Below are positions 46,221 to 47,222 of a stretch of DNA of 64,000 bases, piece by piece. Each line of letters opens with the position of its first letter. The first letter of the stretch is position 1. The DNA is taken from assembly GCF_055900595.2 (NCBI RefSeq), contig NZ_CM148325.1. One strand, written 5' to 3'. Below the pieces are notes generated by a model that did no database searches, was not told the DNA's origin, and saw only the letters and a program-made list of their open reading frames with translations. The position numbers and the translations under genes are program-made.

Positions 46221-47222
46221 TTAAAATAGCATTTGAGTCAAATAGCCCATCAAGATAGCCATACCTAAGATAACCGTCAGGAATGCAACTATCATCGGTA
46301 TTCTGAACATTGATTTAAGTAATATCACTTCCGTCAGACTTGCGCCGGCACTGCCGATGATTAATGCCATTAATGCTCCCAGACCCATTCCTTTTGTCAT
46401 CAGAACAGATGCCAGAGGGATAACCGCCTCTGCCCGGATATACAGCGGGATTCCGACAACGGCGCTCAATGGGATGGCGAAGGGATTATCTGCCCCTGCA
46501 TGAGCGGCAATCCACGCTGAGGGAATAAAGCCATAAATAAAAGAGCCTATTAATACCCCTAACAAAAGATATGGCAGTACATCTTTAAACTGTTGCAACG
46601 CATCTTTGGTGGCTAGTTTTATGGGATTAATACTTACCACAGCTTTGGTACTGCAACAGTTTACTACCGGTTTCTCAATGGCTTTAGCCGCTGGACTACA
46701 GCAACTCACTTTTATTGGCGTATATGTCGTCCCCGGCGAAGTTTTGGCTGGAGAGCAACAATTTGCTGATGAGCTTTTACTGGCAATGATATGACGTTCA
46801 AATCTCAGAGAATCCAGGATAATACTGGCAAGTACGGAGACGCCGGCGGCGATAATCGCGTACAACAAGGTAACTTTCCAACCAAAGGTCACCCACATTA
46901 ACCCGACGATAATGGGATTAAGTAACGGTGAAACAAATAAAAAAGTGAGAGTCGGACCAAACCCGGCTTTCGCTGACAACAATCCACGTAGCATGGGTAT
47001 TGTCGAGCAACTACAGAACGGGGTAACGGCTCCCAACAGAGCAGCCAGGAGATAGCCTCTCCCTTTTCTGGCCCCCATCATCTGCTGGATTTTATGGTCT
47101 GGCACCTTTTGTCTTATCAGGCTGACACCGGCACTAATCACCATAAACAGCAAAGAAAGCTCGACGGCGAGAAACACAAACATCTCTGCGGCATCTTGCA
47201 GCATCGCAAGCCAACTACTCAT
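46221..47222 (-). CDS. ArsP-like permease (COG0701 predicted-permease family) with TPFCSCS motif and a Cys-Cys-rich central loop, about 333 aa
   Basis: Polytopic membrane protein with the conserved TPFCSCS motif characteristic of ArsP organoarsenical efflux permeases, plus a loop holding three CC pairs. Start set at the second ATG (MSSWLAM), which has a GAGG Shine-Dalgarno; the six-frame ORF starts at 47234. Confidence 0.75.
   Translation of the reverse strand: MSSWLAMLQDAAEMFVFLAVELSLLFMVISAGVSLIRQKVPDHKIQQMMGARKGRGYLLAALLGAVTPFCSCSTIPMLRGLLSAKAGFGPTLTFLFVSPLLNPIIVGLMWVTFGWKVTLLYAIIAAGVSVLASIILDSLRFERHIIASKSSSANCCSPAKTSPGTTYTPIKVSCCSPAAKAIEKPVVNCCSTKAVVSINPIKLATKDALQQFKDVLPYLLLGVLIGSFIYGFIPSAWIAAHAGADNPFAIPLSAVVGIPLYIRAEAVIPLASVLMTKGMGLGALMALIIGSAGASLTEVILLKSMFRIPMIVAFLTVILGMAILMGYLTQMLF

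Follow-up and report, generated by a model that had tools for sequence, protein, structure and literature searches.

What might three vicinal cysteine pairs be doing in the central loop of a bacterial membrane permease? The question is raised by a gene at positions 46221..47222 (minus strand) of a 64,000-nucleotide (nt) stretch of DNA (contig NZ_CM148325.1 of assembly GCF_055900595.2; hereafter the window), which is 100% identical to the Escherichia coli chromosome record NZ_CP098223.1. The product matches the Pfam family ArsP_1 (PF03773; E 1.1e-52, residues 14-334 on model positions 4-293 of 294), and in the identical record the NCBI annotation pipeline (PGAP) names it simply 'permease'. The longest open reading frame (ORF) runs over 46221-47234 (minus strand, 337 aa); the second ATG, at 47222, is the likely true start, because GAGG lies 6 nt 5' of it, the PGAP product has 333 aa and the homologues all begin there. 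Residue numbers below are those of the 337-aa frame, from which 4 should be subtracted for the 333-aa product. Our answer, which we offer as quite possible though somewhat short of probable, is that the loop is a built-in thiol capture element, binding trivalent (organo)arsenicals and passing them to a cysteine motif in the membrane.

Cysteine pairing and its turnover in the central loop

As read from the sequence, the central low-complexity loop between the two repeats of the permease comprises residues 151-204 (46623..46784, minus strand; ASKSSSANCCSPAKTSPGTTYTPIKVSCCSPAAKAIEKPVVNCCSTKAVVSINP). The composition of its 54 residues is S10 A7 K6 C6 P6 T5 V5, and the six cysteines form three Cys-Cys (CC) pairs: C159-C160 in the context ANCCSPAKT (46755..46760), C178-C179 in VSCCSPAAK (46698..46703) and C193-C194 in VNCCSTKAV (46653..46658), all encoded on the minus strand. 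Of 1,000,000 shuffled versions of the loop, 0.08% contained at least three CC dipeptides. The protein contains eight cysteines in total, and the remaining two, C74 and C76, belong to the motif TPFCSCS (residues 71-77, 47004..47024, minus strand), which is at least 90% conserved in 85 homologues and which probably marks the end of a re-entrant hairpin, where the substrate would bind. A C(S/T)C motif is a hallmark of the family, and the E. coli form corresponds to the 'tPF-CSC' of cluster 2 (PMC4435449). An earlier sequence-only reading of the window had noticed the same three pairs at the same codons, in a quoted string lacking the leading A, and had described the loop as an element apart from the membrane TPFCSCS site that might differ between lineages; on both counts it is borne out.

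Close homologues (from E. coli, E. fergusonii, Salmonella, Proteus, Citrobacter and Aeromonas) have membrane cores at least 90% identical and loops that vary in length and sequence, with 2-5 CC each. We measured Cys pairing in two sets, one of 94 representatives at 50% identity and the other of 80 species-level genomes (Vibrio, Shewanella, Photobacterium and others). The loops of the 94 representatives contain 61 CC, where shuffling gave 11.6 +/- 3.0 (maximum 24 in 2000 shuffles), and those of the 80 genomes contain 117, where shuffling gave 32 +/- 5, corresponding to 5-fold and 3.6-fold enrichment, respectively. Among other spacings, CxC was seen 27 times against 12 expected in the representatives and 11 times against 32 in the genomes, CxxC 2 times against 12 and 3 times against 31, and CxxxC, in the genomes, 53 times against 31. 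All 80 loops in the genome set contain Cys, 79 of them at least two (median 7), and the median CC-to-CC spacing is 13 residues; outside the loop the median is 2 Cys, which is the CSC motif. Measured against the E. coli query, these 80 relatives are 62% identical over the core and 19% over the loop. Loop length ranges among relatives from 40 to 117 residues, and many distant homologues have Cys-free loops. From these comparisons, the loop appears to be hypervariable in sequence yet conserved in its Cys pairing. The alignment with homologues that the sequence-only reading had proposed thus returns a divided result, in that the loop shows little conservation of sequence or of CC number (0-7), yet Cys enrichment is conserved.

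The same reading had taken the loop for an internal triplication of recent date, and for the E. coli allele this fails. Tandem Repeats Finder reports no repeat in the loop DNA and the best repeat inside it, from a short-seed search, is 15 nt at 73%, which argues against a recent triplication; moreover, the two CCSPA units differ in their codons (TGT TGC TCT CCA GCC vs TGC TGT AGT CCA GCG), their Ser codons coming from different codon boxes. Tandem arrays do occur in the loop DNA of Craterilacuibacter (36 nt x3.2) and Endozoicomonas (33 nt x2.8), both encoding (S/A)CCxxKPxxPK units. On plasmids, permease alleles of 377, 359 and 345 aa are related by clean in-frame loop deletions of 54 nt and 96 nt, the former flanked by 15-nt direct repeats at 54-nt spacing, and these deletions cost one or two CC units. 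Turnover of CC units is therefore real in the family, tandem duplication adding them in other lineages and repeat-mediated deletion removing them from plasmid alleles.

Topology, partner regulator and gene context

An AlphaFold2 model built on an 85-sequence alignment has a mean local confidence (pLDDT) of 88 and a template-modelling score (pTM) of 0.84. Residues 151-200 of the loop, at pLDDT 49-66 between flanks above 90, are predicted to be disordered. The model contains four long helices (2-43, 119-142, 204-236 and 312-336) and four helix pairs broken mid-way (56-70/75-87, 92-104/107-117, 253-264/268-280 and 285-297/300-306), with TPFC at the first of the breaks, between 56-70 and 75-87. 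Sequence similarity between the N- and C-terminal halves of the permease is not significant (z 1.4). In the 85 homologues, the mean number of Lys plus Arg residues is high in loop 1-2 (4.5), in the flanks of the central loop (3.0 and 4.8) and in loop 7-8 (2.6), and low at the N-terminus (0.7), in loop 3-4 (0.5), in loop 5-6 (0.6) and at the C-terminus (0.1). We rejected a parallel eight-helix topology, in which the K/R-rich loops end up on both faces. An arrangement in which each repeat is a helix, a hairpin, a broken helix and a helix would put the positive loops on one side, and would leave the N-terminus out, the central loop in and the C-terminus out, in the order of the DASS transporters (HP-in, then HP-out). 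Given the positive-inside rule and the predicted DASS/ArsB-like hairpin fold, we infer that the loop is most likely cytoplasmic and flexible, a placement which suits the role in soft-metal(loid) capture or sensing that the sequence-only reading had suggested for it.

Distant homologues with a K/R-rich, Cys-rich N-terminal tail (KKCCPDS..., MACCCRK..., ...CACAC... and ...CSC...NCC... are examples) have an extra helix ahead of the core, and always one, whereas the acidic His-rich tails of the TPLCTFST subfamily join the core directly. That the extra helix accompanies only the K/R-rich Cys tails is independent support for the loop-in topology. Cys- or His-rich N-terminal tails were seen in the distant members P0209, P0242, P0253, P0255, P0164 and P0160/P0171/P0176/P0186; the TPLCTFST subfamily, besides its acidic His-rich tails, has His-rich central loops, and P0164 has an additional MerT-like 'ITCCGFP' helix and a low-complexity segment with four CC.

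Divergent from the permease gene is that of a 98-aa ArsR/SmtB repressor (47330..47626, plus strand; NCBIfam HTH_metalloreg, 61.9 bits against a cutoff of 55), which contains Cys73 and a C-terminal pair, Cys91-Cys92 (codons 47600-47605). Its best solved homologue is AfArsR (6j05, E 5e-10), and the pair, within EECC, aligns exactly with the As(III) ligands Cys95/96 of AfArsR; the E. coli protein stops six residues past the pair, and the equivalent of Cys102 is missing. Such a two-Cys pattern is that of SpArsR, reported to be selective for methylarsenite, MAs(III) (PMC11868830, PMC13236881), and by its cysteines the regulator would be of the SpArsR type (two-Cys Type 2). A persulfide site of the BigR/SqrR type and a CmtR-type site were considered and rejected, as the matches are weaker and no Cys occurs in helix alpha-2 or the recognition helix. 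The regulator is 58% identical to one from Shewanella profunda (Cys83/101/102), with all three cysteines aligned, and the S. profunda gene is likewise divergent from a CC-loop permease. The conserved cysteines of SpArsR we take to be 83, 101 and 102, the citing papers backing 101 and 102 only. Across the 80 genomes, such a regulator is adjacent to the permease in 54, divergently in 46 of them, and all 54 adjacent regulators keep the CC. The third Cys is absent from 33 of these, as in SpArsR, and present 3 to 7 residues past the pair in the other 21, so that As(III)-type and MAs(III)-type sites coexist in the clade. Within the 95-bp intergenic region, two 22-nt imperfect palindromes, 37 nt apart (47246-47267, ATATTTCCAGAATAATCGAAAT; 47283-47304, ATATTTCTGGTATTATCGAAAT), form an 82% direct repeat and a 77% inverted repeat, and are probably the operators of the ArsR-type repressor.

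The order of genes in the window is slp, a hypothetical gene, the permease (minus strand), the ArsR-family regulator (plus strand) and then arsC, arsB and arsR (minus strand). The last three are the glutaredoxin-dependent arsenate reductase gene arsC (47760..48185; NF007456, 305.9 bits), the arsenite efflux gene arsB (48198..49508; NF011980, 727.7 bits) and, by annotation, a canonical arsR (about 49542-49895). The sequence-only reading had named the host protein an ArsP-like permease, and the family match, the arsenic-type regulator and these neighbours agree with it. Similar linkage is found with arsRBC in E. coli and Buttiauxella, with arsRDABC in Citrobacter, as arsD-arsA-permease-acr3 in Craterilacuibacter and as acr3-arsD-arsA-permease in two Endozoicomonas, the ars proteins of the latter two genera each scoring over cutoff (ArsA 896 bits, ArsD 113, Acr3 392); in S. 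profunda, arsD-arsA is close to the regulator-permease module. In most of the 80 genomes, as in Aeromonas and on plasmids, the module has no ars neighbours.

Several neighbouring features deserve separate mention. At four loci (L015, L034, L036 and L038) the permease immediately follows arsD-arsA, with acr3 in the cluster at three of the four; from this gene order, it is a possibility that the permease, and not ArsB, would be the membrane partner of the ArsA ATPase there. A SigZ-type extracytoplasmic function (ECF) sigma factor with a C-terminal CCH...CxxC (240 bits, cutoff 212) is encoded beside the module in nine loci (e.g. L047:4875-5474). In the window, the 407-aa ORF at 44417-45640 (minus strand), between slp and the permease, has a GC content of 30-35%, is annotated 'hypothetical protein' and had no match in an NCBIfam scan; it looks horizontally acquired. 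Antisense to the loop-coding region is a 62-aa open frame (46606-46794, plus strand), which we did not accept as a gene, as nothing is in favour of it except the open frame.

Fused and split forms of the Cys-Cys element

Six permeases with a Cys-free central loop had sequence 3' of the permease that could be surveyed (a seventh, P0183, was left out of the neighbour survey because its contig is too short). Directly downstream of four of them a small CC peptide is encoded: one of 42 aa at L093 (MGIKDVLKKLKPQEQSCCSVEIEEKKEKNEKEQLDNNNCCNN; L093:3899-4027), one of 46 aa with three CC at L096 (L096:3919-4059), one of 48 aa with CCC at L097 (L097:3916-4062) and one of 45 aa with a single CC at L098 (L098:3944-4081). 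The four genes begin no more than about 35 nt past the permease stop, and the peptides are hydrophilic, with no signal sequence in any. As for the other two permeases, that at L100 is followed by a 128-aa protein beginning MFKKLFCCSKNKV, with weak similarity to ArsE/Thioredoxin_3 and ArsD, and that at L099 directly by a redoxin gene. None of the roughly 85 Cys-rich-loop permeases, among 107 permease ORFs examined, has a CC peptide gene downstream, and no CC peptide of the 42-48-aa type accompanies any of the 102 other permease ORFs examined. The difference between 4/4 and 0/~85 has a naive p of ~4e-7, which is overstated since the 85 are phylogenetically related.

Two other downstream ORFs contain CC: one is hydrophobic and probably spurious, and the other encodes an ArsE-like thioredoxin that ends in GCSCGCCQ. 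The latter, from an Acetobacter metagenome-assembled genome (L018), is an 87-aa protein encoded right after the permease, with the Cys-rich tail at its C-terminus; by eye, from its CPKC motif, it looks thioredoxin-like of the ArsE/MTH895 type, and the permease loop at this locus also contains CCCC and CC.

A search with the peptides returned 114 database clusters (P0319-P0432), mostly from staphylococci and also from Turicimonas and Tetragenococcus, with single sequences present on as many as 807 contigs. In annotation the clusters go by 'hypothetical' or, spuriously, 'alcohol dehydrogenase', their consensus is M..K..FKKL......CCxVxI..., and the staphylococcal 42-mer is MGIKDVLNKMKPQDQSCCSVEIEEKKEKNEKEQQDNNNCCNN. 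Neither NCBIfam nor the precomputed Pfam assignments gave a hit for the 42-48-aa peptides, the Pfam scan proper having covered the L100 128-aa protein alone. The peptides form a genuine conserved family. We rejected their identification with SaoC, the CC-COOH protein beside SaoE, which is a secreted lipoprotein of 158 aa, in contrast to these cytoplasmic peptides of 42-48 aa. At the staphylococcal-type locus arsD-arsA adjoin, and the regulator has a CVCDL motif and a C-terminal CC.

The distribution of CC elements between fused and split forms argues that the element is functional. We therefore hypothesize, with less assurance than for the loop itself, that CC 'beads on a string' are a modular accessory of ArsP_1 permeases, a minimal thiol metallochaperone that may take any of three forms, exchangeable for one another: a loop between the repeats (E. 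coli), an N-terminal tail with an extra helix, or a free cytoplasmic peptide of 42-48 residues (staphylococci, Turicimonas and others). The searchable literature, outside which two key subscription papers fall, makes no mention of the Cys-rich loop or of the downstream peptides; it speaks of a 'hydrophilic loop of variable size' (PMC7176098) and of the membrane CSC motif (PMC4435449; bioRxiv 10.1101/2022.07.06.499078). What appears to be new is an ArsP-type permease with a built-in Cys-pair accessory, and the fused/split module would be the more novel, hypothetical generalisation of it.

What the loop may do and where the module occurs

If the loop is a capture element, it would be a flexible cytoplasmic linker joining the two inverted repeats of an ArsP-type secondary exporter, and its three vicinal Cys pairs would be low-specificity, multivalent thiol sites that capture thiophilic substrates in the cytoplasm. 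The substrates would most likely be trivalent arsenicals, especially two-coordinate organoarsenicals such as methylarsenite and reduced roxarsone, and ligand exchange would move them on to the Cys-Ser-Cys at the tip of the cytoplasm-facing re-entrant hairpin, making the loop in effect a built-in mini-metallochaperone. Since a vicinal pair provides two ligands, it would match two-coordinate MAs(III) or aryl-As(III) and mirror the site of the divergent SpArsR-type repressor, which may control the permease gene through the same vicinal-Cys-pair chemistry. Further chemical parallels are the C-terminal Cys pair of MerA and the biarsenical dyes, which bind vicinal cysteines.

Known systems share parts of this arrangement. 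CjArsP of Campylobacter jejuni (TC 2.A.119), which exports MAs(III) and trivalent roxarsone, Rox(III) (PMC6205960), has the Pfam family and the membrane C(S/T)C motif in common with the E. coli permease, and also linkage to ars genes, which among relatives of the latter is far from general. The Campylobacterota relatives that we found are about 30-33% identical to the E. coli protein, and in a set without CjArsP itself, those from Helicobacter and Campylobacter have 0-1 loop CC, against the three pairs in E. coli. SO_0444 and SaoE share the superfamily and the CSC motif (bioRxiv 10.1101/2022.07.06.499078), but SO_0444 differs in having a ZntR-like regulator (PMC3219624) where the E. coli permease has one of ArsR type. 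We rejected equivalence to either, as the permease scores far under both cutoffs (108.7 bits against 300 for the SO_0444 family Cu/Zn efflux model NF033936; 83.4 against 325 for the SaoE model NF040736); no SAO-locus genes are present near the permease in the annotated neighbourhood. The plant P1B-ATPases HMA4 and HMA2 likewise carry many CC in a disordered, fast-diverging cytosolic part of a metal exporter; the di-Cys motifs of HMA4 bind metal with nanomolar affinity and are needed in vivo, and the CC copy number differs between species (11 vs 13) with function kept (PMC6255694). They differ in being an unrelated pump class without homology, with the CC in a terminal tail, not between repeats, and with Zn/Cd as substrates. 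ArsD too has vicinal pairs (Cys12-13 with Cys18, Cys112-113 and Cys119-120), which bind As(III) and deliver it to the efflux system (PMC4562236), and its gene lies immediately 5' of arsA-permease in four relatives; however, ArsD is a folded, thioredoxin-like soluble protein serving the ArsA ATPase, whereas the E. coli pairs are in an unstructured segment of a transporter.

Several observations weigh against capture of arsenicals by the loop. Most marine relatives are away from ars genes; the loop-in topology has as its basis the positive-inside rule and the likeness to a fold that is itself predicted, and the arrangement assumed in a published sequence analysis is a parallel 4+4 one (PMC7176098); the best NCBIfam match of the permease is the SO_0444 Cu/Zn efflux family, though far under cutoff; and plasmid alleles occur in nature without one or two CC units, which, with the range of CC number from 0 to 7 among relatives, suggests that no particular CC pair is essential. 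The sequence-only reading itself stood to be weakened by a loop that is poorly conserved and dispensable, and here poor loop conservation and natural deletion alleles were found, but Cys enrichment is kept. The match to SO_0444 (E 3e-31) could mean that the element captures Zn, Cd, Cu or Hg in a permease like SO_0444, its proximity to ars genes being incidental. Mutants of SO_0444 and Shew_3410 are Zn/Cu-sensitive (PMC3219624; bioRxiv 10.1101/072470), the di-Cys motifs of HMA4 bind Zn and Cd (PMC6255694), one distant CC-loop homologue lies among CDF and Metal_resist genes, and ars genes are absent beside most of the modules in Vibrio and Shewanella. Yet the score is far from what the SO_0444 model requires, SO_0444 is predicted to be under the putative ZntR orthologue SO_0443 (PMC3219624) where our permease faces a regulator of AfArsR/SpArsR type with arsenic-site cysteines, and linkage to arsD, arsA, acr3, arsB and arsC recurs across several lineages, so that we consider other soft metals distinctly improbable as the substrates.

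Readings that take the pairs for something other than a capture site have to contend with the way in which CC varies. Were the loop a passive linker, its pairs a by-product of low-complexity evolution, one would expect the 19% identity, the wide range of lengths, the deletion alleles and the Cys-free loops of distant homologues; but CC stands 3.6- to 5-fold over shuffles, none of which reached the observed number, CxxC is depleted about 10-fold, all but one of the 80 loops have at least two Cys, and relatives with a Cys-free loop bear the CC element in another form. The enrichment statistics by themselves disfavour the passive linker, and we give it very little weight. Regulation rather than conduction deserves more, even if we think it unlikely: binding the same thiophilic ligands, the loop could gate the permease in response to the metal(loid) load of the cytoplasm, as a sensor or an autoinhibitory plug, or it could dock a partner protein, for example ArsA. 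Its disorder and variable length suit a tether or plug, it could contact ArsA or ArsD at the four loci where the permease comes right after arsD-arsA, and for HMA4 a regulatory role of the di-Cys tail has been suggested in addition to metal binding (PMC6255694). However, where the element exists as a free peptide an intramolecular plug is harder to picture, and a CC number that varies freely, recent deletions included, is more in keeping with additive capture than with a defined interface for regulation. Finally, a periplasmic loop, with cysteines in disulfides or binding substrate outside, would follow from the eight-helix parallel 4+4 model (PMC7176098), which places the loop on the side of the acidic N-terminus; it is hardly to be expected given the distribution of positive charge that led us to reject that topology. 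Capture in the cytoplasm and hand-off to the membrane CSC site thus remain our tentative preference.

The regulator-permease pair is widespread: of 5426 complete E. coli genomes, 2221 (about 40%) have it with a coverage of at least 80%. A diverged copy of the module is present on at least 648 PLSDB plasmids (Escherichia 401, Salmonella 185, Klebsiella 33), 456 of them conjugative, and many of the module-bearing plasmids come from poultry or pigs. On IncI-type backbones the module is beside a ProQ/FinO gene (plasmid loci among L002, L010, L011 and L012), and the regulator is identical across L010-L012, the loci of the 377-, 359- and 345-aa permeases. These natural alleles are a ready-made deletion series of the loop.

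ArsP-family permeases are widespread and little studied, and the searchable papers discuss their membrane CSC motif only. Our findings point to an unannotated micro-protein family in staphylococci, which, if the proposal is true, would be a new class of micro-chaperone, and the E. coli and plasmid module would be an unrecognised determinant of organoarsenical resistance. If the module gives resistance to roxarsone-type feed arsenicals, it could co-select tetracycline and other resistance genes on the same plasmids. For the family as a whole, a transferable Cys-pair accessory, if true, would account for the supply of substrate to a small secondary exporter when nearly all of that substrate is bound to thiols in the cytoplasm.

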